Below are positions 18,713-38,221 of a stretch of 64,000 nt of DNA, piece by piece. This DNA is from a virus (Duplodnaviria > Caudoviricetes): the IMG/VR virus record IMGVR_UViG_3300045747_000505. One strand, 5' to 3'. Each line of letters starts with the position of its first letter. Within the stretch, counting starts at the first letter, position 1. The position numbers and the translations under genes were made by a program. The notes beneath the pieces are model-generated. The model made no database searches. It had not been told where the DNA came from and worked only from the letters and a program-made list of their open reading frames with translations.

Positions 18713-18786
18713 TGGGGTCTGGTGTTCTGGTGAACACAGTCGGCTTTGACCCGACCGAGGTGGGTTCGATCCCCACGTCCCCTGCA
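18713..18786 (+). tRNA. tRNA-Gln(TTG), no encoded CCA, imperfect acceptor stem
   Basis: GTCGG-CTTTGAC-CCGAC, TTCGATC T-loop. Confidence 0.7.
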
Positions 18787-18835
18787 TCCCGCATCGCAGT
18801 TCAGCACACATCTTTTTGTGTTACAATGAACTGCG

Positions 18836-19471: not shown

Positions 19472-19587
19472 TGTAGTGGCAGCACAGAAAACATCGTTCG
19501 CGCTTTTTGTTGCGCAAGTAACCGCTTGTGAATGGTTATCTTTATCATCCAAAGCTAGGGTTGGTTCGAATCCAGCCATCACCACCA
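19462..19587 (+). ncRNA. tRNA-like RNA with about 50-nt insertion in the anticodon arm
   Basis: 7-bp acceptor GGTGATG/CATCACC + ACCA, D-arm and T-arm present, about 74 nt between them. Confidence 0.6.
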
Positions 19588-19595
19588 AAATCAAT

Positions 19596-19671
19596 TCCGT
19601 CTTAGTATTCTCGGCGAGTACCTCCGGCTGTTAACCGGATGAGTCTGGTTCGAATCCAGAAGACGGAGCCA
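19596..19671 (+). tRNA. tRNA-Asn(GTT)
   Basis: TCCGG-CTGTTAA-CCGGA, CCA. Confidence 0.9.
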
Positions 19672-19679
19672 AGATCTGA

Positions 19680-19752
19680 TGGGGAGCGTCAAGGTTTGAC
19701 CGACTCGGCTCTGACCCGAGTTGCTTAGGTTCGAGTCCTAACTCCCTTGCCA
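19680..19752 (+). tRNA. tRNA-Gln(CTG)
   Basis: CTCGG-CTCTGAC-CCGAG, CCA. Confidence 0.85.
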
Positions 19753-19760
19753 AATTCTAT

Positions 19761-19836
19761 GCGTCGTTATCCGATGTGGTCATGGAAGCTCCCTGAAGAG
19801 GAGATAAACCGGGTTCGATTCCTGGACGACGCACCA
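19761..19836 (+). tRNA. tRNA-Phe(GAA)
   Basis: Loop CT-GAA-GA, CCA. Confidence 0.85.
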
Positions 19837-19844
19837 ATTATAAT

Positions 19845-19919
19845 ACTCGCTTGGTTCAGTGGTGGAACGCTTCCTTGACATGGAAGAGGTCGCAGGTCCG
19901 ATTCCTGCAGCGAGTACCA
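19845..19919 (+). tRNA. tRNA-Val(GAC)
   Basis: CTTCC-TTGACAT-GGAAG, variant T-loop TCCGAT, CCA. Confidence 0.85.
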
Positions 19920-19927
19920 AATTACAT

Positions 19928-20002
19928 GGGGTGCAAACTTTGACGGTGAAGCTCTGGCTCTTAACCAGATGGAAGACAGTTCGAATCTGTCGCGCCCCAC
20001 CA
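19928..20002 (+). tRNA. tRNA-Lys(CTT)
   Basis: TCTGG-CTCTTAA-CCAGA, CCA. Confidence 0.85.
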
Positions 20003-20010
20003 AACACAAT

Positions 20011-20080
20011 ACCCGGTCCAATGGATTGGCTGCGGTCCTACGAAGGCTGCGTGATCGGTTCGACTCCGATACTGGGTTCA
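20011..20080 (+). tRNA. tRNA-Arg(ACG), short D-arm, no CCA
   Basis: CGGTC-CTACGAA-GGCTG. Confidence 0.7.
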
Positions 20081-20087
20081 TGATAAT

Positions 20088-20162
20088 GGGTTCGTAGCTC
20101 AGAGGCAGAGCAGGCGGCTCTTAACCGTCAGGCCGAGATTTCGAAATTCTCCGGACCCACCA
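20088..20162 (+). tRNA. tRNA-Lys(CTT), second
   Basis: GGCGG-CTCTTAA-CCGTC, CCA. Confidence 0.88.
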
Positions 20163-20168
20163 AGATAC

Positions 20169-20232
20169 AGACAACCGTACGACTCAGCGTTATCCTGTTA
20201 AGATTCCCCGCTTTGTCACTCCTTTGTTGTCT
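20169..20232 (+). ncRNA. Y-RNA-like element 2
   Basis: AGACAA-C-CG / UG-UUGUCU bulged helix; inner loop TTATCCT..GATTCCC shared with element 1. Confidence 0.55.
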
Positions 20233-20236
20233 CAAT

Positions 20237-20312
20237 ATCCCGTTCGTCTAGCGGCCAAGGACACTGCCCCCTCAAGGCGGGAACTCCGGTTCAAATCCGG
20301 AACGGGATTCCA
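20237..20312 (+). tRNA. tRNA-Glu(CTC), C33 variant
   Basis: CTGCC-CCCTCAA-GGCGG, CCA. Confidence 0.85.
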
Positions 20313-20320
20313 AATACAAT

Positions 20321-20395
20321 ACCGAGTTGGACTTTTGGTGAGGTCCTCTGCCCTTCAAGCAGAAGAGACGGGTTCGATTCCCGTACTCGGTACCA
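20321..20395 (+). tRNA. tRNA-Glu(TTC), near-identical duplicate of 18628
   Basis: Differs only at base 1 (A vs G). Confidence 0.85.
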
Positions 20396-20402
20396 GCATA
20401 AT

Positions 20403-20477
20403 GGATCGGTAGCCTAACGGTCAGGCACCTCTCTGTCTAAGAGGTTCAAGCGGGTTCGACTCCCGTCCGGTCCGCCA
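20403..20477 (+). tRNA. tRNA-Asp(GTC)
   Basis: CCTCT-CTGTCTA-AGAGG, CCA. Confidence 0.9.
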
Positions 20478-20483
20478 GCATGT

Positions 20484-20559
20484 AGGCTTTAGAGTGATTG
20501 GAAATCCTATCCCTTTCATGAGGGGATGTTGCGAGGTTTGAATCCTCGATAGCCCGCCA
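20484..20559 (+). tRNA. atypical tRNA(CAT) (Met/Ile2-like)
   Basis: TCCCT-TTCATGA-GGGGA, 1:72 mismatch, T-loop TTTGAAT, CCA. Confidence 0.55.
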
Positions 20560-20569
20560 GATATTCAAT

Positions 20570-20643
20570 GGTGGTTCTAGTGTAGTGGCAGCAAGACGGT
20601 CTGTGAAACCGTAAGGCAGGGTTCGATTCCCGGTCCCACCCCA
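20570..20643 (+). tRNA. tRNA-His(GTG), mismatched acceptor stem
   Basis: G-1 and C73; ACGGT-CTGTGAA-ACCGT. Confidence 0.75.
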
Positions 20644-20664
20644 CCTGATTCAGATAAATAGAAG

Positions 20665-21309
20665 ATGAACAAACATCATCTAGTTTATCGCACGACGAAC
20701 CTTCTGAACGGAAGGTATTACATCGGCATCCATTCAACGTCGAACATCGACGATGGGTATCTTGGTAGCGGTCGTAGGATCAAGGCGGAAATCAAGAAGT
20801 ACGGTCAAGAGAATTTCAAGCGTGAGATCCTTGAGTCATACCCAACAAGGCAAGAAGTCTTGAAACGCGAAGCCGAATTGGTCACTGAAGAACTTCGTCA
20901 AGATTCGCTCTGTCTGAATCTTAAGAATGGCGGCGAAGGCGGTTGGGAACATCTGAATGACAACTCTGAGGTCCAACGCGCAAAAGGACGTAAAGGAAAT
21001 GCCAGCATCAAGATCTTGGCAAATGATCCTATTTGGGCCGCATCAAGAAGCGCAGCAATCAGCAATGGTCTTCGCGGAAAGTCTGCTGGGTGGAGTGAAC
21101 AAGCAACAATGGCTTCGCACACCGATGAAGTAAATCAAAAGCGAAGTCGCACAATGAAAGACTTGGCAAGGCAATCAGGCCAAGCAAATTCCCAGTTCGG
21201 AACCTGTTGGGTGACCAACGGGTTTCCAATAAAGATCAAGAAACAAGATCTCGATTCGTATCTGACAAATGGATATGTTCGAGGAAGAACAAAACAATGG
21301 TGCACGTAG
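20665..21309 (+). mobile_element. Seg-like GIY-YIG homing endonuclease
   Basis: LVYRTT..RYYIGIHST..GYLGSG; SQFGTCWV; paralog of 18836. Confidence 0.85.
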
Positions 21310-21375
21310 ATCAATTGGTAGATCCCGGGATTGTGATTCCCGTCGTTGTGGGTTCGAGTCCCATCGTGCACCCCA
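21299..21375 (+). tRNA. tRNA-His(GTG)
   Basis: G-1, C73; CGGGA-TTGTGAT-TCCCG; CCA. Confidence 0.9.
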
Positions 21376-21385
21376 GTATTTCAAT

Positions 21386-21459
21386 GCCCTCGTAGCACAT
21401 TGGTCGTGCGCACCTTTGGTATGGGTGAGAACAGAGTTCGATTCTCTGCTTGGGCACCA
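21386..21459 (+). tRNA. tRNA-Thr(GGT)
   Basis: CACCT-TTGGTAT-GGGTG, CCA. Confidence 0.88.
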
Positions 21460-21467
21460 ACTATAAC

Positions 21468-21543
21468 GCCCGCGAAGTATTACCTGGTGGTACGCGTCTT
21501 TCGTACGGATGAGGACTCAGTTCGAGGCTGAGCGTGGGCTCCA
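21468..21543 (+). tRNA. tRNA-Thr(CGT)
   Basis: CGTCT-TTCGTAC-GGATG, CCA. Confidence 0.8.
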
Positions 21544-21550
21544 GTACAAT

Positions 21551-21628
21551 TGTGGTCGAGCAAGCAAGGTGTATGCACCGCACTGTTAATGCGGACAGAG
21601 CCGGGTTCGATTCCTGGGACCACAGCCA
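21551..21628 (+). tRNA. tRNA-Asn(GTT), second
   Basis: CCGCA-CTGTTAA-TGCGG, CCA. Confidence 0.88.
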
Positions 21629-21637
21629 GATCAAAGT

Positions 21638-21712
21638 GTCTCCGTAGTTCAACGGAGAGAATAGGACGCTACGAACGTTCAGACGGGGGTTCGATTCCCT
21701 CCGGAGGCACCA
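21638..21712 (+). tRNA. tRNA-Arg(ACG), second
   Basis: GGACG-CTACGAA-CGTTC, CCA. Confidence 0.88.
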
Positions 21713-21749
21713 CTATAAATAAGTCATCGCAACTCAACCGGATAAGCGT

Positions 21750-21995
21750 ATGACACTCCTTCAAGAACTCCTTGACCTGCCAAACAAAGCGCCAAAGGCC
21801 TTCAAGGCCGGCGACAAGTTTGACATCACCAACAATGGCCTTCACTTCACCATCGAGGTGGTCGCCGCCGACAAGGGTCCGTCTGAACTTCAGATCGAGA
21901 CCGTGCGCGATGGCAAGGCTCGCAAGAGCTACACCGATGCGCTTGAGCTCAGCGCTCGCCTTCGCGACTGCGAGAAGTTCAAGAAGGTCAAGTAA
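21750..21995 (+). CDS. small late protein
   Basis: TATAAATA at 21714; MTLLQELLDL resembles the 35073 N-terminus. Confidence 0.7.
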   Translation: MTLLQELLDLPNKAPKAFKAGDKFDITNNGLHFTIEVVAADKGPSELQIETVRDGKARKSYTDALELSARLRDCEKFKKVK

Positions 21996-22003
21996 CAATC
22001 AAT

Positions 22004-22078
22004 GGTGCTGAAGCTGAATGGTTAAGCAGCGGTCTCATAAGCCGTGCGTCGTGGGTTCGATTCCCACCAGCACCACCA
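22004..22078 (+). tRNA. tRNA-Met/Ile2(CAT)
   Basis: GCGGT-CTCATAA-GCCGT, CCA. Confidence 0.88.
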
Positions 22079-22199
22079 ATTACAAGAGGTCGATGCCGGC
22101 ACCTACGAGGCCGTTGTCGTACGAGTCTAACAACTTGAAAGGACGCATCATGCGTACAGTGTCATCGACGCTTGATGCGTCTCGAAAACGAACCCCTTT

Positions 22200-22273
22200 G
22201 GGGGCGTAGTTAAGTGGTATAACATGCGGCTTTTACCCGTTCGTCCTGAGTTCGATTCTCAGTGCCCCTACCA
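22200..22273 (+). tRNA. tRNA-Lys(TTT)
   Basis: Loop CT-TTT-AC, CCA. Confidence 0.85.
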
Positions 22274-22558
22274 TTATTGAACCAGCCAGTTCATCCTTAT
22301 GTTACCTAGAGGTAACTCTCGCTATGTTACCTAGGTAACATAACCACACTGTGAAATCGACATTCCCCGTATATAGATTATGAACCGCCTTATGTGCAGT
22401 ACTGCACTTAGTGTTCTGTACTGTACAGACTTTCCGCTGTGCTTTGTTCGGGGGCGTATAAATACATTCAACGAGCAGCAAGACTCGTCGAGGTAGCGCA
22501 GACCAAATCAGGCCATTGGCCTTTTAGGCGACGAACCACAAGGTTCGTCGCCCTCTTT

Positions 22559-22630
22559 ACCCCTGCCGAAGGAGCGGTGGCCGGCCTTCTAAGCTGGCAT
22601 ATGTGAGTTCGAGTCTCACCAGGGGTTCCA
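22559..22630 (+). tRNA. tRNA-Arg(TCT)
   Basis: CCGGC-CTTCTAA-GCTGG, CCA; short D-arm. Confidence 0.8.
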
Positions 22631-22867
22631 GATTGATGTAGATCAATTAAACCGCAATGACCGAAACCTTTTCTAGGTTCGGGTCAGTTTATGTGTTTAT
22701 TGACTGGTGTTTCTAAAGTGATTCGTGTAAATACATCTGTCCAGTACAGAACATAACAGTCCCAAAGAGGACTGCAAGAATTGTGGGAACCAACCCATGA
22801 CGGTAACGGCGACGCACACCGCTAGTCTTTGCTCACGCAATGTGAGCCGAGCATTAAGGAGCGGTCA

Positions 22868-23806
22868 ATGCCAACAGCAACCACAAATGAGACGGTACCT
22901 CCGAAGATGATCGACGCAGTCGTCGGTCTTGACGGTCTGCCTCTCAATATTGCGGTGGCCATCGAAGCAACCCGCAACGTTGACAACAACAGCGCCACAG
23001 CCACAATTCAACAGGCTAGTGTCGCAACCAAAGGGGAAACTACTATGGCAGACATCGTTACCGGCACCACCACGGGCCAACTCGACACCACCGCGCTCAT
23101 GCAGGACCACGCCGACATCCGTCGTGAAAATGCACAAAGCGAAGCACAGGTTCGTCGTGACATTCAATCAACCAGCGGCGATTCTCGTCGCGAAGCAGCC
23201 GAGATCGGCGCCGCAAGCGCCTATCAGAACGCTACTCAACACGCCGGCATCGTCGACCAGGTGAAGTCTGCTGGTTGGGCCAACTCGGACCGCACCGGCA
23301 CCGAAGCTGACCGCGTCGTCGGTCAGGGCACCGCCTACTTCATCGCTGAGCAGCAGTACGCTTTCAACAACGCTACCGCCGTAGCTGCGCTGAAGGCCGG
23401 CACTGACATGCAGTTCGCGAACACTCTCAGCGCCATCAATTCCGCAGCCCAAATGGGTCAGGCAGCGACGGCTCTTGAAGGTGCGAAGTCGGCTGCAGCT
23501 GCAGCTCTCGGCCAAGCCCTCATCGGCCAGCAAATCGTTGCTGACGGCAACAACACCCGCGCGCTCATCAACGAGCTCAAGATGGAGCAGCTCAACCGCG
23601 AACTCATCGAGCGCAACGCTGCTCTCGTCGAGGCACGTGGTGACTGCCGCTACTGGCAGGGTGGCTACAACCAGTCGCAGTTCGCCGCTGTGACCTCCCA
23701 GCTTCAGGCCTTTCAGAGCCAGCTCTCTGAGACCCGCCAAGGCATGGTGAACTTCGGTACTCAATCCGGAGTTGGTCAGACCGCGACCACGAACTCCGTT
23801 CGTTAA
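22868..23806 (+). CDS. Ala/Gln-rich coiled-coil protein (possible second in-frame start at 23045)
   Basis: AAGGAG RBS before 22868; GGGGA RBS before 23045. Confidence 0.7.
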   Translation: MPTATTNETVPPKMIDAVVGLDGLPLNIAVAIEATRNVDNNSATATIQQASVATKGETTMADIVTGTTTGQLDTTALMQDHADIRRENAQSEAQVRRDIQSTSGDSRREAAEIGAASAYQNATQHAGIVDQVKSAGWANSDRTGTEADRVVGQGTAYFIAEQQYAFNNATAVAALKAGTDMQFANTLSAINSAAQMGQAATALEGAKSAAAAALGQALIGQQIVADGNNTRALINELKMEQLNRELIERNAALVEARGDCRYWQGGYNQSQFAAVTSQLQAFQSQLSETRQGMVNFGTQSGVGQTATTNSVR

Positions 23807-23851
23807 TTGGATGAGGGTGGAGCTAGCTCCACCCACCTTCAAGGACGCATC

Positions 23852-24667
23852 ATGGCAGTACTTGGACCACTAGAGCGCGAGTTGATTGAACTCAACTCTG
23901 CGATTTCAAACCTCCGCAGCCGCGCTGAAGGGGTGGTCTTTCACTCACAAACTGGAACGGACGCTCAAGTGCAAACAATCATCCCATCAGTCTCTGGCGG
24001 TGCCGGCAACGACATCATCAACGTTGAGGTGAATGAATCATGCGTTTGTCCACCTGGTCCTCCGGGTCCAGAGGGGCCACCAGGCCCGGTTGGTCCGCAG
24101 GGTCCGACAGGTCCTCAAGGCCCATTTGGTCCTCAAGGCTCGCAGGGTTCACAAGGCTCTGTTGGTCCAGCCGGACCTCAAGGCGATCCAGGGCCAGTGG
24201 GTTCACCAGGACCCGTTGGCCCACAAGGCGATCCAGGCCAGACAGGCCCGATTGGTCCTCCAGGTCCTATTGGCCCAGTGGGTTCGACAGGTCCTTCGGG
24301 GCCTCAAGGTCCGATTGGTCCCGCCGGTCCGCAAGGTCCAATAGGCCCCGTTGGTCCGCAAGGGCCACCAGGCAAGTGTGAGTGTGACCGAGCCACGCAG
24401 CTCATCTCGGCAGACTACGAAGCACAGATCACAGACTTTTATATCGGGGTCTCAGCGAAGGGTCCTGTAAAGATCCTCCTACCACAAAAAGCGCCAGATG
24501 GCACGTGGCTCATAGTGAAGCTTGAGATGGGAGCGCCGATCGGAACACGAAAGGTCACGCTGGATGGGAATGGGGCAACAATCGATGATGCCGCCACTAT
24601 CACCATGACCAAAGCCTACGAGATCGTTTGGTTGATCAGCCGTGGCGGGTCCTGGTTCGTGGTGTAA
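23852..24667 (+). CDS. collagen-like protein (about 36 Gly-X-Y triplets)
   Basis: Uninterrupted GPP/GPQ run flanked by CVC and CEC; globular C-terminal domain. Confidence 0.9.
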
Positions 24668-24701
24668 TTTCATTGACAAACGTGCGAAAGGGAACAACAG
24701 C

Positions 24702-24926
24702 ATGTACTACAACAACTATCCATACTACAACAACTATTTTCGGAGACCATATGGGTATGGTCACGGTGGGGGCTACTGCCCAACCTGTGGTCACGCTCAC
24801 TCTTGGTCTCATCCGGCTTTGATTGGAAGCCAGTTGTCGTCGATCAACCAATCGCTGCTGAACTACGGCGTGCAAACGAACGTGCTTCAACAGGCAATCG
24901 CAAATCAGGCCTTGGGTTACTACTAA
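24702..24926 (+). CDS. small Tyr/Gly-rich protein
   Basis: MYYNNYPYYNNY..CPTCGH. Confidence 0.6.
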   Translation: MYYNNYPYYNNYFRRPYGYGHGGGYCPTCGHAHSWSHPALIGSQLSSINQSLLNYGVQTNVLQQAIANQALGYY

Positions 24927-24935
24927 GGCTATGAG

Positions 24936-25184
24936 GTGTTATCCGTTCAAGACCTGCTTCGTAAAGCCAACTGGCTACTAAGCGCTCGCGAAGAGTGGGA
25001 GCCGCCAGTCGGCTTCTTCATGCGCCCGTGCGACACCATCGCACGTGAGCTGCTTGACCTGAGCGATGACAAGACGCAGGCGATAGGCCGACTGGATGAC
25101 TACATCAATATCACTAGAGCAGCCTTAGACGATGACGACCTGAATCGCCTAGAGCGAGCCAGGAAAATCATCAACGATAAATAG
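24936..25184 (+). CDS. hypothetical protein
   Basis: GAGG RBS, GTG start. Confidence 0.55.
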   Translation: MLSVQDLLRKANWLLSAREEWEPPVGFFMRPCDTIARELLDLSDDKTQAIGRLDDYINITRAALDDDDLNRLERARKIINDK

Positions 25185-25187
25185 AGC

Positions 25188-25258
25188 ATCGCCACCAATG
25201 GATTGGCATCAGGCCTCCGAAGCCAGATTGGCGGGTTCGAATCCCGCTGGCGGTTCCA
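25188..25258 (+). tRNA. tRNA-Arg(CCG)
   Basis: Loop CT-CCG-AA, GGTTCGAATCC, CCA; D-arm CCAATGGATTGG as in 20011. Confidence 0.8.
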
Positions 25259-25768
25259 TCACTTGACCGTGTACCCCACGAGGTACTTCGCCGGAACCTT
25301 TGCGTTCACGCGCAGCTCTGCGAGCTGATAGAACTGCTGGTCATTGCTATCGAACTTGTCGTATTCATCCTTGTTGAGCAGCCGCTTCAGATGAAGTGGG
25401 TCGTTGCCACGCAGGTCAGGGTCACGGTGCGCCGTCACCCAAGCGCGCGGTAGGTCGAACACGAGCGTGATGCGCTCGTTCTCATGAATGGTTTGCGCCT
25501 TCGCACCAGCCTTGCGAAACTCTGCCTCACCACCCATTGATGCAAACGCTCTTGCCGTGTATGGTTCAAGCGCGAAGGAGATCATGCCGGTGCCAGCGTC
25601 GAGGCGATCAAGGCCAGTCTTGGCGATCGACTCAAGATGCTTGAGCTGGGTGCCGTGATAGACGCGCAGCGGATTCTTGTCCTCCCACCAGCCGATGGTT
25701 GGATTCTTTTCCCACGGCAGCTTCGGCACCTCTCGTGCTTCGGCGATGAATTGTTTGAAGGTCAGCAT
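25259..25768 (-). CDS. ADP-ribosyltransferase-fold (Tpt1/KptA-like) protein with capsid-targeting-like N-terminus
   Basis: VYHGTQLKHLESIAKTGL..ISF..AE; MLTFKQFIAEA. Confidence 0.65.
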   Translation of the reverse strand: MLTFKQFIAEAREVPKLPWEKNPTIGWWEDKNPLRVYHGTQLKHLESIAKTGLDRLDAGTGMISFALEPYTARAFASMGGEAEFRKAGAKAQTIHENERITLVFDLPRAWVTAHRDPDLRGNDPLHLKRLLNKDEYDKFDSNDQQFYQLAELRVNAKVPAKYLVGYTVK

Positions 25769-25810
25769 TGGAAATCCTGTGTTGGTCTTCTATTTAGATA
25801 AATACAGCAC

Positions 25811-25886
25811 GGGTCAGTAGCTCAATTGGCAGAGTTCTGGTCTCCAAAACCAGCGGTTCGGGGTTCGAGTCCCTGCTGGCCCGCCA
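25811..25886 (+). tRNA. tRNA-Trp(CCA), second
   Basis: CTGGT-CTCCAAA-ACCAG, CCA. Confidence 0.9.
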
Positions 25887-25958
25887 CGCAACCTGAGAAT
25901 CGTTCAACACAATTTCGGTGCGCGTGATACAATAGAGCATCAACAACAGGCATCCATC

Positions 25959-26585
25959 ATGCAAAGACGCCGTGTCTACATCATCGCTGCCTTACTGATT
26001 GCATTCTCTGCTCTTGGGCTAGGCGTTCTACTTTACAAGTCATCAGGTTCATCCTCGCCGTCGGCTCCAGCAGGCGGCAGCGGTTCATCAGGCGCCGTCG
26101 GGCAACCCGTGCTGATGGTTGCCACAGTGGCAGCCGCCGCACCTCGGGTTGAGGCTCGTTCTGAGCGCCCAACCACACGAGCACGCCCGCTCTCAACTCG
26201 AACCAGCGAACCAGCACCAACCGTTCAGGCGGCTGCGCAAGAGCCAGCGCTGCCTGACGAACCCACGGGCGCCGGCCCAATGTCAATCGACGAGCAGCCT
26301 ACGTTTGCTGGTTCAGGTGGTGGTTGGGGTTCAGGCACGCCGACCAGCGCACCGGTTGAGGGTGGTGGCGGTGCGCCGATGGCTAGCGCTCTCTCCTTTC
26401 AGACGTTCGGTGGTGGTGGCAGCGTCATCAGCTCGCCATCACCTGCGCCGACCATTGACACGCGCAACGGCATTCCACGCACATCGGTTCAGGTTCCGAC
26501 CTCGCCGGTTGATGAGCCGAATCTGGTGTGGTTGATGCTCGCAGGTCTTGGAGCGCTGTCCTTCAAAGCTCGTCGGAACAAGTGA
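25959..26585 (+). CDS. PEP-CTERM-like sorted surface protein
   Basis: N-term TM, S/G/P/A low-complexity body, C-term VDEP-TM(LAGLGAL)-KARRNK. Confidence 0.8.
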   Translation: MQRRRVYIIAALLIAFSALGLGVLLYKSSGSSSPSAPAGGSGSSGAVGQPVLMVATVAAAAPRVEARSERPTTRARPLSTRTSEPAPTVQAAAQEPALPDEPTGAGPMSIDEQPTFAGSGGGWGSGTPTSAPVEGGGGAPMASALSFQTFGGGGSVISSPSPAPTIDTRNGIPRTSVQVPTSPVDEPNLVWLMLAGLGALSFKARRNK

Positions 26586-28649
26586 GTGAAGCAGCTCACA
26601 CCAGTAGCGCTTGCCGTGGCGCTACTTCACAGCACAGCACAGGCTGAACCAGTCGCCCTACGCGCTGTCAACAGCACGGTTGACCAGACAACATCAATCG
26701 TTCGGCTCGAGCTCTCAAAGCAAATCGCGCTGCCAACAGCCTTTACCAGCGATTCGTCAACCGTCGTTGTAGACCTTGACAATGTCAAGAACATTGGCTC
26801 ACGCAAGCTGCTTGTCAACAAGGGCAACCTCAATGAGGTCAACGTTCGCACCAGCGGCGACCGCACGCGCGTCACCATCTCGCTGACCGGACGCTCGAAC
26901 TACGACCTCACCGTTGACGGTGCCTCCATCGTCATCGTGTTCAAGCCGCCATCAGACACTGCCCGCACCAAGGCGTCTGCCGCGATGGTGATTCAACCGA
27001 CCATTGAGTTTCCATCCTCATCGCCGAAGGGCGAGACGCCAGACAAGCTGCTCGCCAACGCGAAGATTGCCTATGAGGCCGGCAACTTTCAAACGGCGCT
27101 TGAGAAGCTGAACGGACTGCTGATTCTGCCACCATCGGCTTCAACGCAAGAGGGTCAAGAGCTGATTGGGCAGGTGCGTGAGCGGCTGAAGCAGCCTGAG
27201 AAGGCGATGGCTGAGTACAAGGCGTTCATCGCGATGTACCCAGACAGCCCAGCCGTGGCGCGCACTCGTCAGCGCCTGCTCGCCCTTGAGATTGCCACAC
27301 CAGACAAGGTCCCAGAGCAGCGCGCTCGCAAGGCGAAGACAGGCAAGGGCAATGACGTCACGGGCAGCGTGGCAACCTACCTCTACGTTGGTGCGGCACC
27401 TGCCAAGGCGCTGACCTGGACAGCAGACCAGCAGGTGCTAATCAACAATGCATCGGCGACTGCGACGTTTCGCGATGACCAATACACAGTCAAGGTCGCC
27501 GGGCGTGGGTCGGTGCTCACCAATCTTCTTGACAGATCCCGTCATCGCAACTCGCTGTCGGTCTTCAACGTCTCGCTCGACGACAGTCTTCACGACTACG
27601 GCGTTCGACTCGGGCGCCAGAACGCCACCGCTGGCATTCTCGGGCGCTTCGATGGCGCCTCTGGTTACTACAATCTGACCGCCGATACGAAGATGCTGTT
27701 CGGCTTCGGCGCTCCGTATCTTAGCTCGCCATCAACTCGTCGAACTGCCAGCATTGGCATCGATTCATCGCTCACCTCCACGCTTGGTGTTCAGGCGTAT
27801 CTCAACAAGCAGAAGGTTGATGGCGTCACAGAGCGCAGCGCTCTTGGACTTGAGGGTCGCTACTTCAATAACGGTCTGTCGCTCACCGGCACCGTTGAGT
27901 ACGATACGCTCTACAAGGTGCTGAACACCTCAATGGTTCAGGGCACTTGGGTCTTCGGCGACAACACGCTCTACTTTCTAGCCGATCGTCGATTGGCGCC
28001 AGCGCTCTTCGCTGAGCGCCTGCTTCAGCTCGACTCAGCGGCTGGACCGCGCTACGGAACTGTTGGCGAAGCCTTTGGAACCTCTGGCTTCTCGCGTGAC
28101 GAGCTCTACGCCTATCTGGCAGCGTCATCGCCAGTCTCGAAGGCGTTCGTGGTAAGCTGGAGCAATCAGATTACGCCAAAGTGGCTTGGTTCAATCAGCG
28201 GTCAAACGACGAACTACTACACGCCATTCAATCAGTCAGTCATTCCAACTGAGGAGCCAATCGCTCCGGTGCAGACGATCAGCTCAATGAAGGGTCTGAA
28301 CGTTCAGCTGCTTGGGTCTGACACGCCGATGAAGGGTGGTTCCATTCATCTGCTCGGCAACTACAGCAAGTCGAAGGAGACGGCGCTTTGGTATACGGCG
28401 CTACTTAGCTCGTTCGCTTGGCGCTCGTCAAAGGTCGACGTGATGCTGAGAACCGACCGAACGATGCGCCAGTTCACGACGATTGGCAGCGTTGGTGGGT
28501 CAGTCCGCCTCAACTACAAGTTCGACTCTGGCATCTCGATTGAAACGCAGTACAGTCTGACGCGCACCACCACCGTCGATGAGCTTATGCTTCTCTCAAC
28601 CATTCTAAATAGTCAGACGTTCTTCATCGGGTTCCGCTATGAAATCTAG
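26586..28649 (+). CDS. AMIN + TPR + outer-membrane beta-barrel (porin-like) protein
   Basis: Signal peptide AQA; PilQ-like AMIN; TPR helices (..YPDSPAVARTRQRL); amphipathic strands ending FFIGFRYEI. Confidence 0.8.
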   Translation: MKQLTPVALAVALLHSTAQAEPVALRAVNSTVDQTTSIVRLELSKQIALPTAFTSDSSTVVVDLDNVKNIGSRKLLVNKGNLNEVNVRTSGDRTRVTISLTGRSNYDLTVDGASIVIVFKPPSDTARTKASAAMVIQPTIEFPSSSPKGETPDKLLANAKIAYEAGNFQTALEKLNGLLILPPSASTQEGQELIGQVRERLKQPEKAMAEYKAFIAMYPDSPAVARTRQRLLALEIATPDKVPEQRARKAKTGKGNDVTGSVATYLYVGAAPAKALTWTADQQVLINNASATATFRDDQYTVKVAGRGSVLTNLLDRSRHRNSLSVFNVSLDDSLHDYGVRLGRQNATAGILGRFDGASGYYNLTADTKMLFGFGAPYLSSPSTRRTASIGIDSSLTSTLGVQAYLNKQKVDGVTERSALGLEGRYFNNGLSLTGTVEYDTLYKVLNTSMVQGTWVFGDNTLYFLADRRLAPALFAERLLQLDSAAGPRYGTVGEAFGTSGFSRDELYAYLAASSPVSKAFVVSWSNQITPKWLGSISGQTTNYYTPFNQSVIPTEEPIAPVQTISSMKGLNVQLLGSDTPMKGGSIHLLGNYSKSKETALWYTALLSSFAWRSSKVDVMLRTDRTMRQFTTIGSVGGSVRLNYKFDSGISIETQYSLTRTTTVDELMLLSTILNSQTFFIGFRYEI

Positions 28650-29322
28650 CCTGCTGCTTGCACTGCTTCTCTTCGCCTCATCCTGCTTCGGCGCCGAGTG
28701 CACGCTCTACGAGAAGACGCACCCAACGTTTCTGCTCGATGGAGCGCACCTCTCCACCGGCAAGTGCAACACCTGCGCCTCGTGCCACAAGGGCGGCGTG
28801 TTCATGGGAACACCACGAACCTGCATCGGGTGCCACAACGGCGACCCAGCTCGAATGACCGTAGGACGCAGCCCCACGCATATTCCAACTGGATTGATTG
28901 ACTGCAACACGTGTCACAAGACGCTTGCCTTCACCATCGGCACTGTGATGAACCACACGGCGGTCACGACCATCCAGTGTCGAGCCTGCCACGACGGCTT
29001 TCACCTTACATCGAACGCGCTTGGCAAACCGTCCAACCACATTCCAGAAATCAACCTGATTGGCGGGTCGACGATGGACTGCAACCTCTGTCACAAGTCA
29101 ACCATCACTTGGACTGGCGCTGTCACGAACCACAACAACACGCCTGGCAATGGCGCTGGCTGGTGCGTTGGCTGTCACCTGCGTGGACAGACTTGGCTGG
29201 GCGCAGGCACTCGAATGTTGCTCAATCATCGCAATAAGACGCCGCCTCCGACGGATTGCTCAATGTCTGGCTGCCATCGCCCACTTGGCAACACGGGAAC
29301 CACCTACAGAAGTTGGGACTGA
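28639..29322 (+). CDS. multiheme cytochrome c (6 CxxCH + 1 CX4CH)
   Basis: Signal peptide; CASCH, CIGCH, CNTCH, CRACH, CNLCH, CVGCH, CSMSGCH. Confidence 0.92.
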   Translation: MKSSLLLALLLFASSCFGAECTLYEKTHPTFLLDGAHLSTGKCNTCASCHKGGVFMGTPRTCIGCHNGDPARMTVGRSPTHIPTGLIDCNTCHKTLAFTIGTVMNHTAVTTIQCRACHDGFHLTSNALGKPSNHIPEINLIGGSTMDCNLCHKSTITWTGAVTNHNNTPGNGAGWCVGCHLRGQTWLGAGTRMLLNHRNKTPPPTDCSMSGCHRPLGNTGTTYRSWD

Positions 29323-29411
29323 ACCTCACTTAATTTAGCTTAATCATGAACCTAAGATAAAATGAGCAGGCTGATAAATACTTAACATCTGTTTACTTCC
29401 TGGAGAACGCC

Positions 29412-30137
29412 ATGTTCCGCAAACTTCTAGCAATCCTCTCACTCGCCGTCTCGAGCCTACTGATGCCTGGCACGGTAGCGCTCGTCTCGCTCGCACCATC
29501 TACCGCGCTGGCGGCGGAGTGCACCCTATACGAGCAATCACATCCAGCGTTTACCCTGGATGGCAGCCACATGTCAACTGGTAAATGCTCGACGTGCGCC
29601 TCGTGCCACCTCTCCGGCATCTTCATCGGCACGCCGAAGACGTGTATCGCCTGTCACAACGGCGACCCGCTTCGCGTGACGGTCGGTCGCTCACCGCAGC
29701 ACATTCCGACAACGGTCATTGACTGCAACAACTGCCACACAACCGGCTCATTCCTGACGAATTTCAACATGAACCACACCGCCGTTGCTGGTCAGCGCTG
29801 CGATACCTGCCACACTGGCACCTTCAAGGCCGTCTACAACGCCGATGGCAAGCCGAACACTCACGTGCCAACCACGTCTGACTGCGGCACCTGCCACCAG
29901 TCGCGTACCGCCTGGGGTGTTCAGCACGAGGTCCTCCACGCTGGCGTCACCACTGGCTGCGTCACCTGCCACGATGGCTCCTACGCCGTTGGCAAGTCGA
30001 ACTACGCTCCTGGCCACCCTCTGACCTCTGACCAGTGCGAGACGTGCCACAGCATCAACGCCAACTTCAAGTGCGCCAGCCTCGGCGACCTCATGAAGAA
30101 CTTCGCGTTCATTCGCAAGGCTTTCAACATCGCCTAA
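29412..30137 (+). CDS. heptaheme cytochrome c
   Basis: Signal peptide; CASCH, CIACH, CNNCH, CDTCH, CGTCH, CVTCH, CETCH; paralog of the previous gene. Confidence 0.92.
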   Translation: MFRKLLAILSLAVSSLLMPGTVALVSLAPSTALAAECTLYEQSHPAFTLDGSHMSTGKCSTCASCHLSGIFIGTPKTCIACHNGDPLRVTVGRSPQHIPTTVIDCNNCHTTGSFLTNFNMNHTAVAGQRCDTCHTGTFKAVYNADGKPNTHVPTTSDCGTCHQSRTAWGVQHEVLHAGVTTGCVTCHDGSYAVGKSNYAPGHPLTSDQCETCHSINANFKCASLGDLMKNFAFIRKAFNIA

Positions 30138-30159
30138 GACGACCACTTCGTCACATCGC

Positions 30160-30184
30160 AAGGGCTCCTTCGGGAGCCCTTTTT
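30160..30184 (+). terminator. rho-independent terminator closing the cytochrome operon
   Basis: AAGGGCTCC-TTCG-GGAGCCCTT + T-run. Confidence 0.85.
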
Positions 30185-30242
30185 GCTGCCCGATGAGGCG
30201 GTGGCTTATAAATACATCATCTACAACTGGCCGGCCAACATA

Positions 30243-30905
30243 ATGAATAAGGAAAAGATCGCGGAGTTTCTCATCGAAATGATGGAAGTGCTGACGATCC
30301 GTCGCATCTCACTCCTGGCTATCCTCGCGACCCTTCTCATTTCCCTTTTCACGGTTTATGAATACCGCAACGCGGTCTTTGCAACGATTTATCGCAGCGC
30401 AGATACAGCCACCATCATCACTTGGGACCTGAGCCAAGAGAGCAAGACACAGCTCGACGGCCTCACGAACATCCCACTAGTCGGCGCAGTCTTTCTACAC
30501 GACGTCAATTTGAAGAAGAACCGTCAAGCCATCAAGTACCAATTTGTCAAGGACAGGGCGATCGCCGAATACCTTGCGCCGCTTGAAGCAGCGCTGCTCC
30601 CACAGGCTCTGTTTGACTACGACTCCAAGAACACCGAGCAGATGGTTTCAATGCTCAACAACGAATTTAGCTGCTCGCCGACGCGCGAAACAATCTTTGG
30701 ACGACAGTTTCCAGATCTTTACAAGCGGTACCCAATGGTCTGCCGCATTGCTGTCCCTCCATTCTTTGGAGAATTTGTCGGGTACGTGTCAGCAGCGCTG
30801 ACACGACAACCCGCAAGGTCAGAGCTTGATGCCCTCAAAATCGAAATGAATCGTCTCGCCATTGAGACGTATTTGAGGGACATTTCGAAAAAGCTCCCAT
30901 CGTAA
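30243..30905 (+). CDS. single-pass membrane protein, paralog A
   Basis: N-term TM; C-term CRIAVPPFFGEFVGYV. Confidence 0.75.
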   Translation: MNKEKIAEFLIEMMEVLTIRRISLLAILATLLISLFTVYEYRNAVFATIYRSADTATIITWDLSQESKTQLDGLTNIPLVGAVFLHDVNLKKNRQAIKYQFVKDRAIAEYLAPLEAALLPQALFDYDSKNTEQMVSMLNNEFSCSPTRETIFGRQFPDLYKRYPMVCRIAVPPFFGEFVGYVSAALTRQPARSELDALKIEMNRLAIETYLRDISKKLPS

Positions 30906-30950
30906 ACACCCAACCACACGCCCATATAGCTATCAGATAGGAATGTACTT

Positions 30951-31622
30951 GTGATTGCCCTGGTCTCTAAGCTGGTCAAGACGATCACCCTCAAGAGCGT
31001 GTTGCTGATTGGCCTATTCGGAATTCTAGCGATGCTCGCTCTGCTAAGCTTCGAGCATCGCGCCGAAATCTTTGGGTCAATCTCTACCAACCGTTCGCAT
31101 CTTACCAATGAAGTCGGTCATGAATTTCTTGTGAGTGAGGAGACGAGAGATCGCATTCGCAACATCGTCGCATCAGACACAACCTATTCTGGGATGGCTG
31201 TGCTCAGCACTGACATTCGATTGAACTCTCGCCGTGTGCTGTTCGTGTTTGACCCAACAGCGCCGAAGGCGAAGATGACGCACCTCATTCAAACGTCTCG
31301 TCTTCCACTCTTCACTCACAATGAAGAAAACAATCGTCAGGTCGTGAAGCTCATCAACGGCGAGTTCTTCTGCGCTCCATACGGCACTTCACAGATTGCT
31401 CAGATGGCGCCAGAGCATATTGGCAGCAACGTCACCATCTGCCGTGCCAGCATTCCACCGTACTACGGCTTCTTCTCAGGCTTCGTAGCGCTGGTGTTGA
31501 AGGTCGATCCAAGCATCGAGCAGCAAGCGCGCATCAAGGAGACTCTTGAGAACCTGGCAACCGAGGTCTACTTTCGCGACGTCATCCCAACTCACAAAAA
31601 GACGTCGTTCGGAGCGCCATAA
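30951..31622 (+). CDS. single-pass membrane protein, paralog B
   Basis: N-term TM; CRASIPPYYGFFSGFV; shared LA.E.Y.RD end. Confidence 0.75.
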   Translation: MIALVSKLVKTITLKSVLLIGLFGILAMLALLSFEHRAEIFGSISTNRSHLTNEVGHEFLVSEETRDRIRNIVASDTTYSGMAVLSTDIRLNSRRVLFVFDPTAPKAKMTHLIQTSRLPLFTHNEENNRQVVKLINGEFFCAPYGTSQIAQMAPEHIGSNVTICRASIPPYYGFFSGFVALVLKVDPSIEQQARIKETLENLATEVYFRDVIPTHKKTSFGAP

Positions 31623-31648
31623 ATAGGCGATACACAGAGGAGACTTGA

Positions 31649-32746
31649 ATGTCGAAGATTGCTATCGTTGGAGCCGGACGACTTGGAACGGCGCTTGCCA
31701 AACTACTGTTGCTTGTATCAGACCATGAGATTGCCCTCATCGACAACGATGAAGCTGCGCTGACCCGCGCTTTCACTCGCTGCTCGAAGATCATTCGCCC
31801 AGAGCATCGCGTCGCCTTCGCACCTGAAATTCCAGTTGAGACGTTCACGGCTTACACGACCGACCAGCTTGAAGCCACGCTGCGCTCAACGCACCCAGAC
31901 ATCGTCGTCTGCGCTGCCGTTGCCGACATCACGTACGCCACGGCAGAGATTGCCAATCGCCTCAGCTGTCACTACCTCGACTTCAACACAGACCCGAATG
32001 TGGCGCAGTCCATTCGGCACCTCTCGGTCGCTCGCCACACCTTTGTGCCGCAGACGGGCCTCGCGCCTGGCCTCATCAACTACGTTGGCCTCGGTCTCGT
32101 GGCTCAGCTTGAGGAGGCACCGGCTTCACTTCAGCTGCGCGTTGGCGTGCTGCCGCAGGTCGCCTTCAGCCCGTCGCAGTTTGCAATGACGAGCCGCGTC
32201 GAGGACCTGGTCGAGTCGTACACGTATCCCTTCAACATCAAGACGCAGGGCAACGAGGAGCTCGTTGCTCCGCTTGACGGCTACGAAACGCTGCTGCTTA
32301 ACGGGACACCATACGAAGCCTTCTACGCCAGCGGTAGCCTCGTTGACCTTGAGTGCTTCAACACGATTCCGAGCGTTGACTTCAAGGCCGTTCGGCCAGT
32401 CGGTCACCTCGACTATCTTCAGAAGCTGCTCTCCAAAGTTGATGGTGATGACGCCATCGAGTTGTTCAAGCAGACCTTCAACACCACGCGCGATGACTTT
32501 ATCATCTTCATTGCACACGCCACCGACGTCAAGGGTCACAGTATCTCATCTGGGCTCGTGTTCTACCCCAGCCTCGACCTGGACATCTCGGCTGACGAGC
32601 TGTGCAATGCGGGAACTGCGTGTGGAATCATTGAAATGATCTTCGCCGAGAAGCTGGAAGCTGGCATTCTGAACGCTTCTCAAATCGACGCGGATGAGCT
32701 GTTTCAAACTCAAGGTGTTCAGCTCATCTTCTACCAATCAGAATAA
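31649..32746 (+). CDS. saccharopine dehydrogenase-family oxidoreductase
   Basis: Rossmann IVGAGRLG; TGLAPGL, LRVGVLPQ. Confidence 0.85.
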   Translation: MSKIAIVGAGRLGTALAKLLLLVSDHEIALIDNDEAALTRAFTRCSKIIRPEHRVAFAPEIPVETFTAYTTDQLEATLRSTHPDIVVCAAVADITYATAEIANRLSCHYLDFNTDPNVAQSIRHLSVARHTFVPQTGLAPGLINYVGLGLVAQLEEAPASLQLRVGVLPQVAFSPSQFAMTSRVEDLVESYTYPFNIKTQGNEELVAPLDGYETLLLNGTPYEAFYASGSLVDLECFNTIPSVDFKAVRPVGHLDYLQKLLSKVDGDDAIELFKQTFNTTRDDFIIFIAHATDVKGHSISSGLVFYPSLDLDISADELCNAGTACGIIEMIFAEKLEAGILNASQIDADELFQTQGVQLIFYQSE

Positions 32747-32790
32747 ATAGGTAAGCGGCGATTCGACCGCAGAACAATCAAGGAGGTCCT

Positions 32791-32910
32791 ATGGACATTT
32801 TCTCACTCACAATCGGCATTGCCGTTGGCGCAGCCTTCGCACCATTCTGGATGATGGTTTGGAAGGGCATCAAGGCAAAGTTCTCAGCTTCAGTTCCGCC
32901 GAAGAAGTAA
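32791..32910 (+). CDS. small membrane protein (39 aa, not in ORF track)
   Basis: AGGAGG RBS; MDIFSLTIGIAVGAAFAPFW... Confidence 0.7.
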   Translation: MDIFSLTIGIAVGAAFAPFWMMVWKGIKAKFSASVPPKK

Positions 32911-36302: not shown

Positions 36303-36595
36303 ACCCAGTGCTAACCGGCTCGTCTTGGTTACCACAAGTGAAATGCGCTTAGGTACCTCTAGCTTCGGCCACGTCTTTTGCGCCGTACGTCAACTCGTTA
36401 ATTGACTAAGTCGTCGTGGCTGAAAACCACGAACGTTAGTGGGTCGAAACCACGCAGGCTATCGCGAGCCAGAAAAGAGCGATGTAGGCGAACCACTGAA
36501 GAGATTCAGCCGCCGAACTTCCGAGGCACAATTTCGTTGCCACTGGTTTGAACACCACTTTGCTGCACATCGCAGCCGTTCCAAGGAGAAACATC

Positions 36596-38221
36596 ATGTC
36601 AAACGTCTACGCAGAATTCGCATCCGCTGACTCGACTTCCAAGCAGGCTCGCCAGTCCACTTCCCCGACGCAGGTCATCCCGGGCCGTGAGGCCGACATG
36701 TCCGCCAACAACGGCGGTGGCTTCAGCTTCGTCATGACGAAGTGGGGCGTGCTCGACCGCTTCATCATGCTCGGCACCGAGAAGGCCGGCTACTACGTCG
36801 GCCAGAAGGAGCAGACGAAGCAGTCCTTCGACACCGTCAAGGCGTGTCTGAAGGAAGATGGTCTCCGCGTCGTGGCTCGCATCGTCGAGTACTCGCTGGC
36901 TGGTCGTGCTCCGAAGAATGATCCGGCCGTCGTGGCCCTGGCTCTCGCAGCCGTGTACGGTGACGACGCGACCCGCGCAGTAGCCTTCGAAGCGCTGCCG
37001 AAGGTCGCCCGTACCGGCACGTGGCTGTTCCTGTTCGTGTCGATCCTCGACTCGCTGGGCAAGTGGAACGCGGCTGCAAAGCGTGGCGTTGCCGCTTGGT
37101 ACACGACGAAGCAGGTCGACCGTCTGGCCGTTCAGCTGCTCAAGTACCAGTCCCGCAATGGCTGGGCGCACCGTGACGTTCTGCGTCTCGCGCACGTCAA
37201 GCCGTCGTCTGACGTTCAGTCGGCCCTGTTCCGCTACGCGGTGAAGGGTGCCGAGGGCATCGAGTTCGGCACGATGGTGCCGCAGCTGCTCGTCGACTTC
37301 GAGCTCTTGAAGCGCACGACCGACAAGAAGGAAGTGCTTCGCCTGATCGAGTCCAACGACTTCATCAGCTGGGAAATGGTCCCGACGCAGTGGCTGAAGG
37401 ATCCGGACGTGCTGACCCTGCTCGTCAAGAACATGGGCCTCACGGCCGTGATTCGCAAGCTGGGTGCGCTGACGGCCCATGGCGTGATCAAGCCGCTCTC
37501 GAGCGGTCTGAAGGACGTCGTGGCGAAGCTGACGGACTCCGAGCAGCTGAAGCGCCAGCGCGTTCACCCGATCACGCTGCTCCAGTCCCTGAAGCAGTAC
37601 TCGGTCGGCCACGGCGACAAGGGTTCGTTGGTCTGGGTTCCGAACCAGCGCGTCATCGATGCTCTGGACTCGGCGTTCTACGACGCGTTCACGCACGTCG
37701 AAACGAAGGGTGAGAACTACCTCATCGCGTGCGACATCTCTGGCTCGATGCAGGGTGCGAACGTCAACGGTTCTCCGAACCTCACGGCAGCTGAAGTTGC
37801 GGTGGTCATGGCGATGGTTGTTGCGCGCAAGCAGGACAACTACCACATCGTTGGCTACAACCAGCGTTTGGTCGACCTGCACGTCTCGCCGACGATGCGT
37901 CTCGACGCTGCCATGGCTTCGTACAAGAAGCAGCACTGGGACGGCGCCGGTACCGACTGCGCCAAGCCGTTCGAGGCTGCCCTCGCCAACAAGTGGCCTG
38001 TCGACAAGTTCGTCAGCATCACTGACAACGAGGTCAACTCGGGCTCGCAGCACCCGGCGCAGGCTCTGGCCAAGTACCGCAAGGGCTTGAACGCCATGGC
38101 GAAGTCGGTGGTCATCGGCACCTCGGTGTCGGAGTTCACCATCGCCGACCCGAAGGACTCCGGTTCTTTGGACATCGCAGGCTTCGACTCAGCTGCTCCG
38201 CAGCTGATCTCCGACCTGTGA
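36596..38221 (+). CDS. rsr: Ro60/Rsr TROVE-domain RNA-binding protein with vWA C-terminus
   Basis: NNGGGFSF, LDRFIMLGTE..YY, KYQSRNGWAHRDVLRLAH, DISGSM (MIDAS), TDNE. Confidence 0.95.
   Translation: MSNVYAEFASADSTSKQARQSTSPTQVIPGREADMSANNGGGFSFVMTKWGVLDRFIMLGTEKAGYYVGQKEQTKQSFDTVKACLKEDGLRVVARIVEYSLAGRAPKNDPAVVALALAAVYGDDATRAVAFEALPKVARTGTWLFLFVSILDSLGKWNAAAKRGVAAWYTTKQVDRLAVQLLKYQSRNGWAHRDVLRLAHVKPSSDVQSALFRYAVKGAEGIEFGTMVPQLLVDFELLKRTTDKKEVLRLIESNDFISWEMVPTQWLKDPDVLTLLVKNMGLTAVIRKLGALTAHGVIKPLSSGLKDVVAKLTDSEQLKRQRVHPITLLQSLKQYSVGHGDKGSLVWVPNQRVIDALDSAFYDAFTHVETKGENYLIACDISGSMQGANVNGSPNLTAAEVAVVMAMVVARKQDNYHIVGYNQRLVDLHVSPTMRLDAAMASYKKQHWDGAGTDCAKPFEAALANKWPVDKFVSITDNEVNSGSQHPAQALAKYRKGLNAMAKSVVIGTSVSEFTIADPKDSGSLDIAGFDSAAPQLISDL

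Follow-up and report, generated by a model that had tools for sequence, protein, structure and literature searches.

Can a bacteriophage furnish the parts of an electron conduit that crosses the envelope of the cell it infects? The question is raised by a four-gene module at positions 25,959–30,184 of a 64,000-nucleotide stretch of viral DNA (the whole of which we call the window) from IMG/VR record IMGVR_UViG_3300045747_000505. The window belongs to a 273,537-bp contig of a pond/wetland jumbo phage. The module consists of four co-oriented genes for a PEP-CTERM-like protein, an outer-membrane β-barrel protein with AMIN and TPR domains, and two multiheme c-type cytochromes (cyt1 and cyt2), with a conserved hairpin at the end (list of open reading frames, ORFs; Table 1). 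We consider it reasonably probable that the locus derives from PCC3, a porin-cytochrome c gene cluster type of betaproteobacteria, in a miniaturised form carried by phages, and that it installs an electron path across the envelope of the infected cell. The evidence that carries this reading is the homology of the barrel and cytochromes to PCC3 components, the presence of a PCC3-type inner-membrane protein (IMP) in the same phage, and the conservation of the module in other large phages.

A porin-cytochrome module in jumbo-phage DNA

The module DNA is that of a phage and is correctly assembled, being neither host DNA nor a chimera. The region was found in four pond and wetland metagenome runs (X1–X4). 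Contigs from X1 bridge 24674–27986, 27957–29197 and 29168–32819, and those from X2 bridge 24155–26102, 27155–29761 and 29732–32461, all with zero differences. Read depth is flat over 22–37 kb (~25x and ~10x in two metagenomes) and both module junctions are spanned. A relative on a 9.1-kb contig (L001) shares a synteny of eight genes with the window, with 77% identity in the barrel protein, 87% in cyt1 and 94% in cyt2. The ratios of non-synonymous to synonymous substitution rates (dN/dS) against L001 are 0.19, 0.14 and 0.16, respectively, in the same range as those of the neighbouring phage genes, so the module is under purifying selection. Contigs from two metagenomes that span both junctions at even depth, together with a relative that keeps the synteny at such dN/dS values, argue for phage DNA and against misassembly, in agreement with the initial annotation, which had taken the module to be phage-encoded. 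Other genes of the window also mark it as a phage: 23 tRNA genes (ARAGORN), tail-fibre proteins, an RNA ligase, a PHROG peptidase and a PrkA-type kinase 51–57% identical to the kinases of Ralstonia phage RsoM2USA and uncultured 600-kb phages.

The combination of a barrel with a 7-heme cytochrome recurs on 16 distinct phage sequences (the window phage and at least 15 others). A scan of IMG/VR with the single cyt2 protein returned nothing, whereas an alignment-based scan did find relatives, on 21 viral contigs, 14 of them distinct and up to 369 kb long. The GenBank phage collection (50,697 records) contained no DNA or protein match to the module, which therefore looks unique among deposited phage genomes, with relatives only in IMG/VR and metagenomes. 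Three long contigs that we inspected look like phage, with many small ORFs, a T7-type kinase, dCMP deaminase, DNA ligase, RF-1 and SmpB. Five large records have one terminase large-subunit gene each, and one record is complete with terminal repeats.

The synteny sought in other phages is indeed found there: in 16/16 phage versions with upstream DNA, the cytochrome gene or genes are directly preceded by a homologous barrel gene. The usual order is barrel, a short cyt1-like gene with 4–5 hemes and then the 7-heme cyt2, which is the universal cytochrome of the module. Even the 11-nt overlap of the barrel and cyt1 genes is also present in L006, L008, L012, L015 and L025. The N-terminus of the barrel protein is more variable, with an AMIN domain in only four phage versions and a lipoprotein-like or plain signal peptide in the others. 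The G+C content (GC) of the module matches that of its flanks in 14 of the 15 phage loci tested, over a range of 34–59%, the exception being L024 (49% versus 40%).

Barrel, cytochromes and their PCC3 relatives

The 687-residue barrel protein matches the Pfam AMIN family at residues 34–117 (E 9e-8, above the cut-off) and TPR at 156–231. An AlphaFold2 model built with 42 homologues has a mean predicted local distance difference test score (pLDDT) of 85.8, so the fold is predicted with high confidence. It comprises an AMIN β domain (23–120), five TPR helices (152–237) and 22 strands (255–686), with a disordered linker between AMIN and TPR and a helical insert at 476–514; the protein also has a signal peptide. 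The C-terminus, FFIGFRYEI, is an outer-membrane β-signal and all phage homologues end alike (for example FYIGYRYDF). The AMIN-TPR-β-barrel architecture read from the sequence in the initial annotation is thus confirmed. Foldseek searches with the barrel returned only generic outer-membrane barrels (porins, ushers and BtuB, with MtrB at rank 49), and the template-modelling score against 6r2q_B (0.27–0.28) reflects generic similarity. A PDB sequence search with the same protein gave AMIN and TPR matches only.

The two cytochromes are paralogues (56% identity over 162 residues), with six CxxCH motifs plus a C-terminal CSMSGCH (Cx4CH) in cyt1 and seven CxxCH in cyt2, exactly the paralogous secreted pair with 6+1 and 7 heme motifs noted at the outset. 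Pfam Cytochrome_C7 is above cut-off in both (E 1e-12 for cyt2), as is c3_2 in cyt1. Among phage homologues of cyt1 the last heme site varies between CxxCH, Cx4CH and Cx5CH at one position, and this alternation argues that the odd Cx4CH motif is a real heme site. The alignment of 38 cyt2 homologues has as invariant columns the seven CxxCH motifs, seven further histidines and three non-heme cysteines. The seven histidines are candidate distal ligands, and their number would suffice for bis-His ligation of each heme. Homologues of cyt2 form 119 clusters at 47–66% identity. In the PDB, sequence searches with the cytochromes gave weak matches to c7, reaction-centre and MtrC/MtrA proteins (MtrA profile E 0.12). 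The three invariant non-heme cysteines of cyt2 are C37 at the mature N-terminus (AAEC), C59, which precedes the first CxxCH by three residues, and C221 (FKCA), which is followed by an amphipathic C-terminal helix; they may serve as a disulfide or an attachment site.

What kind of system do these proteins belong to? PCC3 clusters occur in Beta-, Alpha- and Gammaproteobacteria (He et al., 2017, PMC5566968; Gallionellaceae pangenome, PMC9900912). Their signature is a conserved IMP of ~300 residues with five transmembrane helices, an SGxxG motif and two WX3HX13H motifs, and their cytochromes are a repeat-rich extracellular one with 10–85 hemes and a separate periplasmic one with 21–30 hemes (PMC5566968). 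Cellular homologues of the phage barrel are 21–34% identical to it and are located in clusters with this layout; to PCC3-layout porins it is a full-length homologue at 25–34% identity, with E down to 1e-43. Three of these homologues (P0010, P0008 and P0006) are found in clusters L002, L028 and L029. In L002, whose porin matches the phage barrel across residues 8–687 (tblastn E 7e-42), the order is a 320-aa membrane protein with SGxxG and two WX3HX13H motifs, a 30-heme cytochrome, a 30+14-heme repetitive cytochrome and the porin. L028 has a 302-aa membrane protein, cytochromes of 701 and 2050 aa, the porin and ccmDEFGHI, and in L029 the porin is followed by ccmABCDEFGHI. The giant PCC3 cytochrome has repeat units that both phage cytochromes match at 35–44% identity; their match to the 30-heme protein of L002 is weak (22–28% identity, E about 1e-5).

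An IMP is encoded by the same phage ~47 kb upstream of the module (L043:348–1139, 263 aa, about −21,290 to −20,498 relative to the window). L043 is linked to the window by overlapping public contigs with identities of 100, 100, 100 and 99.96%, and an identical protein is recorded on the 273,537-bp contig. The phage IMP keeps both WX3HX13H motifs and an SGFIG, with a hydropathy scan as the sole source for the number of transmembrane helices. It is 37% and 36% identical to the IMPs of L002 and L028 (E 7e-55 and 4e-51), and its nearest named relatives are from Leptothrix, Comamonadaceae and Piscinibacter (46–50% identity), which gives a hint as to the host. A mini-IMP of ~155 aa is present in 5 of the 14 other viral records; its three motifs and four histidines are all intact, and a ~120-residue loop is missing. 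Its gene is directly after cyt2 in L008 and L020, directly before the barrel gene in L014, and about 60 kb off in two records. Behind the full-length IMP gene of the window phage follow a 99-aa ORF, tRNA-Ser(GGA) and a canonical PEP-CTERM protein (L043:1809–2486, VPEP...RRQRR, passing PF07589). This gives the window phage two PEP-CTERM-type proteins, each encoded next to a part of the cytochrome system.

Since the barrel relatives are PCC3 porins, the cytochromes match PCC3 repeat units and an IMP is present, we regard the locus as a miniature system derived from PCC3, not as MtrAB. The kinship is with differences: the phage cytochromes have 5–7 hemes as opposed to 10–85, a separate 21–30-heme periplasmic cytochrome is absent from the module and the window, and the IMP is unlinked in the window phage and reduced to ~155 aa in other phages. 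Further, the system is phage-borne, its barrels form a distinct clade and their N-terminal modules vary. The likeness to MtrCAB, MtoAB and PioAB (6R2Q) lies in adjacent genes for an outer-membrane barrel and secreted multiheme cytochromes, in bis-His-type motif counts and in MtrB being among the Foldseek matches. In contrast to those systems, the phage barrel has 22 predicted strands instead of 26 and adds AMIN and TPR domains, and the cytochrome has 7 hemes instead of 10. The barrel has no Pfam match to MtrB_PioB at E <= 0.1 and the cytochromes have no NCBIfam match to decaheme MtrA/DmsE. The initial annotation had likened the module to MtrAB-type conduits; its reading as an envelope electron conduit gains from the homology to PCC3 and the IMP in the same phage, while membership of MtrAB fails on family, strand number and heme number.

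A maximum-likelihood tree places the 16 phage barrels together with one bacterial copy in a clade with a support of 100 in the Shimodaira–Hasegawa-like approximate likelihood ratio test (SH-aLRT), apart from 32 cellular porins. This bacterial copy belongs to the sole chromosomal mini-module found among 185,579 species genomes, by a scan with two conserved peptide patterns that would miss more divergent copies. It is located in a metagenome-assembled genome (MAG) of the Methylophilaceae (JABFRO010000001.1, L027:9983–12941), in the order cyt2-like, barrel, short cytochrome, and sits between IS200 and DDE transposase genes with a GC of 44% against 50% in the flanks. The same MAG has a full-length IMP on another contig (L054). 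In a sample of 301 genomes of its family 31 match the cyt2 profile, and among the matches listed all others are giant repetitive cytochromes. The Methylophilaceae mini-module looks horizontally acquired, possibly from a phage.

A proposed electron path across the envelope, weighed against other readings

How could such a set of proteins work? We infer how the complex assembles, where each cytochrome is located, which way electrons flow and what the phage gains, and the scheme would run as follows. In the infected cell the phage would transcribe the module genes from its own promoters of the ATAAATAC type. Host Sec would export the three proteins, host Ccm would attach the hemes, and the host β-barrel assembly machinery (BAM) would place the 22-strand barrel in the outer membrane with AMIN and TPR facing the periplasm and peptidoglycan; a dependence of the module on host Ccm, Sec and BAM is supported by our analysis. 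One or both of the bis-His-type 7-heme cytochromes would then bind within or beneath the barrel, so that their hemes make up a wire through the outer membrane. The PCC3-type inner-membrane protein of the phage, which is di-heme-b-like, or a host equivalent, would join this wire to the quinone pool, and the infected cell could pass electrons to, or accept them from, Fe, Mn or humic substances outside it during phage replication. The homology to PCC3 clusters and the presence of a PCC3-type IMP in the same phage strengthen this electron-conduit reading.

Several observations weigh against it. The cytochromes with 5–7 hemes are far shorter than the 21–30-heme periplasmic cytochrome of PCC3, so that bridging the periplasm is a difficulty. 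Co-folding of barrel residues 240–687 with cyt2 residues 35–241 in heme-free form gave a score of 0.00 with an uncertain partner fold, which speaks neither for nor against binding, and the AlphaFold2 model of cyt2 without hemes is poor (pLDDT 60) and was left out of the fold searches; the proposed fit of a cytochrome into the barrel is thus not backed by modelling. The cyt1 gene is missing from three versions (L004, L019 and L020), and an IMP is not detectable in two near-complete phage genomes (G302 and G306). The window has no ccm genes by tblastn with CcmB, C, E, F and H, in accord with the initial annotation, which had found no heme-maturation genes there. A search of RNA runs listed none that contain the region. 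Finally, PCC3 is itself a bioinformatic prediction, and papers up to 2025 call it functionally unverified.

Some of these points would also fit a periplasmic or outer-membrane redox device without electron export, which could act as an electron sink or capacitor, in detoxification of oxidants or metals, or in handling of heme and iron, the barrel being an anchor or a substrate channel. Small cytochromes with no long periplasm-spanning partner are what such a device would have, AMIN and TPR are periplasmic docking domains on the barrel, and the unverified function of PCC3 adds to the case. On the other hand, the strict linkage of barrel and cytochrome with its stop/start overlap, and an IMP with four invariant histidines in 6 phages, point to a chain over two membranes, and a simple anchor needs no large 22-strand barrel. 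We therefore regard a device of this kind as unlikely, though deserving some weight.

A different role for the barrel would be in surface remodelling or superinfection exclusion, or as a TPR-barrel exporter of exopolysaccharide with the PEP-CTERM-like protein as its partner, the cytochromes being secondary. TPR domains followed by a C-terminal barrel are also the layout of PgaA, BcsC and PelB-type exporters, phages often encode outer-membrane proteins for exclusion, and in the window the PEP-CTERM-like gene abuts the barrel gene. However, the barrel has no Pfam or NCBIfam match to the PgaA, BcsC or PelB families and its model has 22 strands, not ~16. All cellular homologues examined are in cytochrome or ccm clusters, and the module has cytochromes as neighbours, not glycosyltransferases. 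The PEP-CTERM-like gene is missing from 14/16 phage versions while a cytochrome gene is present in all, and we find this explanation quite improbable.

What then is the PEP-CTERM-like protein? Its 208 residues comprise an N-terminal hydrophobic helix, a low-complexity middle rich in Gly, Ser, Pro and Ala, and a tail made of VDEP, a transmembrane segment and KARRNK. There is no Pfam match to PF07589 at E <= 0.1, and the NCBIfam PEP-CTERM matches reach 14–21 bits against cut-offs of 25–100, all far below. The tail aligns with 16/30 identities to that of the phage's second such protein, whose score of 29.8 bits exceeds the PF07589 cut-off of 20.7. Both termini are kept in L001 at an overall identity of only 39%, and none of the 14 other phage versions has a homologue, which leaves the window phage and L001 among the 16. 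Judged by its sequence and distribution, the gene is lineage-specific and no core part of the module, and the name holds as PEP-CTERM-"like" only. The PEP-CTERM partner of the initial annotation has a tail of similar pattern and falls short in family thresholds and recurrence. A kinship with the small TPR protein that follows the L002 porin (E 0.001) is weak and driven by low complexity, and we do not rely on it.

That the module might have no role in infection, as passive cargo from a recent capture of host DNA or as the product of a faulty join in assembly, is hardly credible and already largely refuted: the genes are of cellular type with betaproteobacterial relatives and one chromosomal copy exists in the Methylophilaceae MAG, but independent contigs span the junctions at even depth, the diverged L001 has the same synteny under purifying selection, the phage barrels form a well-supported clade of their own, GC is ameliorated to each phage, promoter and terminator signals of phage type are conserved, and in the bacterial chromosome it is the module that is the compositional outlier between insertion sequence (IS) elements.

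The reading of the locus as a PCC3-derived electron path can be taken further. Large phages of betaproteobacteria in fresh water and wetlands may carry a minimal, self-sufficient conduit of IMP, barrel and 5–7-heme cytochrome that energises the infected cell on extracellular Fe, Mn or humics, with the phage clade as the source of the Methylophilaceae mini-module; we put this wider proposal forward tentatively, as possible and somewhat short of an even chance. If true, viruses would directly alter extracellular electron transfer and the redox cycling of Fe, Mn and humic substances in ponds, wetlands and lakes, and the Methylophilaceae copy would be a gift of a respiratory device from phage to cell. 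A form reduced to three or four genes, in which the cytochromes have 7 hemes and the membrane partner 155 aa, makes the function of PCC3 testable by heterologous expression. Native PCC3 is widespread, but its cytochromes are too large and repetitive for easy handling; the smallest natural version, if it is one, would offer the most convenient way to probe the function of the system.

Phages are known to carry auxiliary metabolic genes that serve photosynthesis and the metabolism of sulfur, nitrogen and carbon. Methanoperedens Borgs and jumbo extrachromosomal elements (ECEs) carry host-type multiheme cytochromes (PMC13444090; 10.1101/2023.08.01.549754), and amoC-phages carry a NapC/NirT cytochrome (10.64898/2026.06.18.733297). 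Like the window phage, these are large extrachromosomal or viral genomes with multiheme cytochromes, presumed to be metabolic boosters. The Borgs and ECEs, however, have archaeal hosts and no barrel, and the amoC-phage protein is a host-like inner-membrane quinol dehydrogenase that is not porin-linked and whose genes are highly similar to host copies, whereas the present module forms its own deep phage clade. Our searches of some 8.4 million papers and preprints found no phage-encoded outer-membrane porin-cytochrome system, only the phage NapC/NirT and the Borg cytochromes.

Putative expression signals and neighbouring genes

All 6 copies of the motif ATAAATAC in the window are on the + strand, where chance alone would give 0.14, and every copy is upstream of a gene or tRNA. 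We take it to resemble T4-type late promoters, and it is a putative promoter on this evidence. Apart from the copy ahead of tRNA-Trp and the module (Table 1), one lies 38 nt ahead of the cyt2 ATG and another at 30208, before the gene that follows the module. Of the 41 non-coding bases before the cyt2 ATG, 40 are the same in L001, in contrast to the remainder of the spacer, which has diverged with a 28-nt indel. A candidate promoter of its own for cyt2, proposed earlier as a sign of integration into the phage programme, thus gains from the enrichment and conservation of the motif, which lies at 29374 (29373 in the initial annotation).

The hairpin at the end of the module (30160–30181) pairs 9 bp around a TTCG loop and runs into TTTG; a fold of 61 nt has −26.4 kcal/mol with z = −4.1. 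A simple consensus terminator scan missed it. In L001 the stem is preserved around a different loop. The initial annotation had described four co-oriented, abutting or overlapping genes closed by a terminator, and the ORFs, the 11-nt overlap and this hairpin agree with that description. Together, the conserved promoter-like block and the hairpin support what would be expression signals specific to the phage.

Table 1. Coordinates of the module genes and of the signals around them within the window
Feature	Position	Strand	Basis and remarks
Promoter-like ATAAATAC	25798..25805	+	Before tRNA-Trp and module
tRNA-Trp(CCA)	25811..25886	+	Last of the phage's 23 tRNAs; 72 nt before first module gene; ARAGORN
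PEP-CTERM-like membrane or surface protein, 208 aa	25959..26585	+	ORF; sub-threshold NCBIfam
PCC3-porin-family outer-membrane protein, 687 aa	26586..28649	+	Abuts previous stop codon; Pfam AMIN/TPR, AlphaFold2
cyt1, secreted cytochrome c, 227 aa	28639..29322	+	Start overlaps barrel gene by 11 nt; motif count, Pfam
Promoter-like and 5' untranslated block with ATAAATAC (29374–29381) and GGAGAA ribosome-binding site	29371..29411	+	Before cyt2
cyt2, secreted heptaheme cytochrome c, 241 aa	29412..30137	+	Motif count, 38-homologue alignment, Pfam
Intrinsic-terminator-like hairpin	30160..30185	+	Closes module

Shortly 5' of the module is a single minus-strand gene for a 169-aa protein (25259–25768), 96% identical in L001 with a dN/dS of 0.14 and with a weak match to the RNA 2'-phosphotransferase Tpt1/KptA family (E 0.01). 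The tRNA array extends over 18456–25886 on the + strand and contains duplicates (Trp, Gln, Glu, Lys, His, Asn, Met and Thr); many alternative joints in metagenome contigs suggest population-level rearrangement or assembly breaks at the tRNA repeats. At 23807–24667 a collagen-like protein with Gly-X-Y repeats is encoded (Pfam Collagen, E 7e-17), and an 18-nt in-frame insertion after 24109 in one wetland run is a repeat-length polymorphism.

Further away, at 48053–52552, a PrkA/YeaG-type serine kinase is followed by a SpoVR-like protein; the kinase of Enterobacter phage LAU1 is also among its 51–57% relatives. The PrkA kinase, part of the stress-kinase set of the window, was not found in five other module-bearing phages, which are therefore not close kin of the window phage. 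Directly 3' of the module, 30183–30905 (likely start 30243) and 30951–31622 encode paralogous single-pass membrane proteins, ~24% identical, without a family match and both kept in L001. They are followed at 31649–32746 by a saccharopine-dehydrogenase-like NAD(P) protein, a counterpart of which (41% identity) is near the module in L005, and at 36548–38221 by a 557-aa protein that matches PHROG 850, annotated "RNA-binding protein" (E 5e-67).

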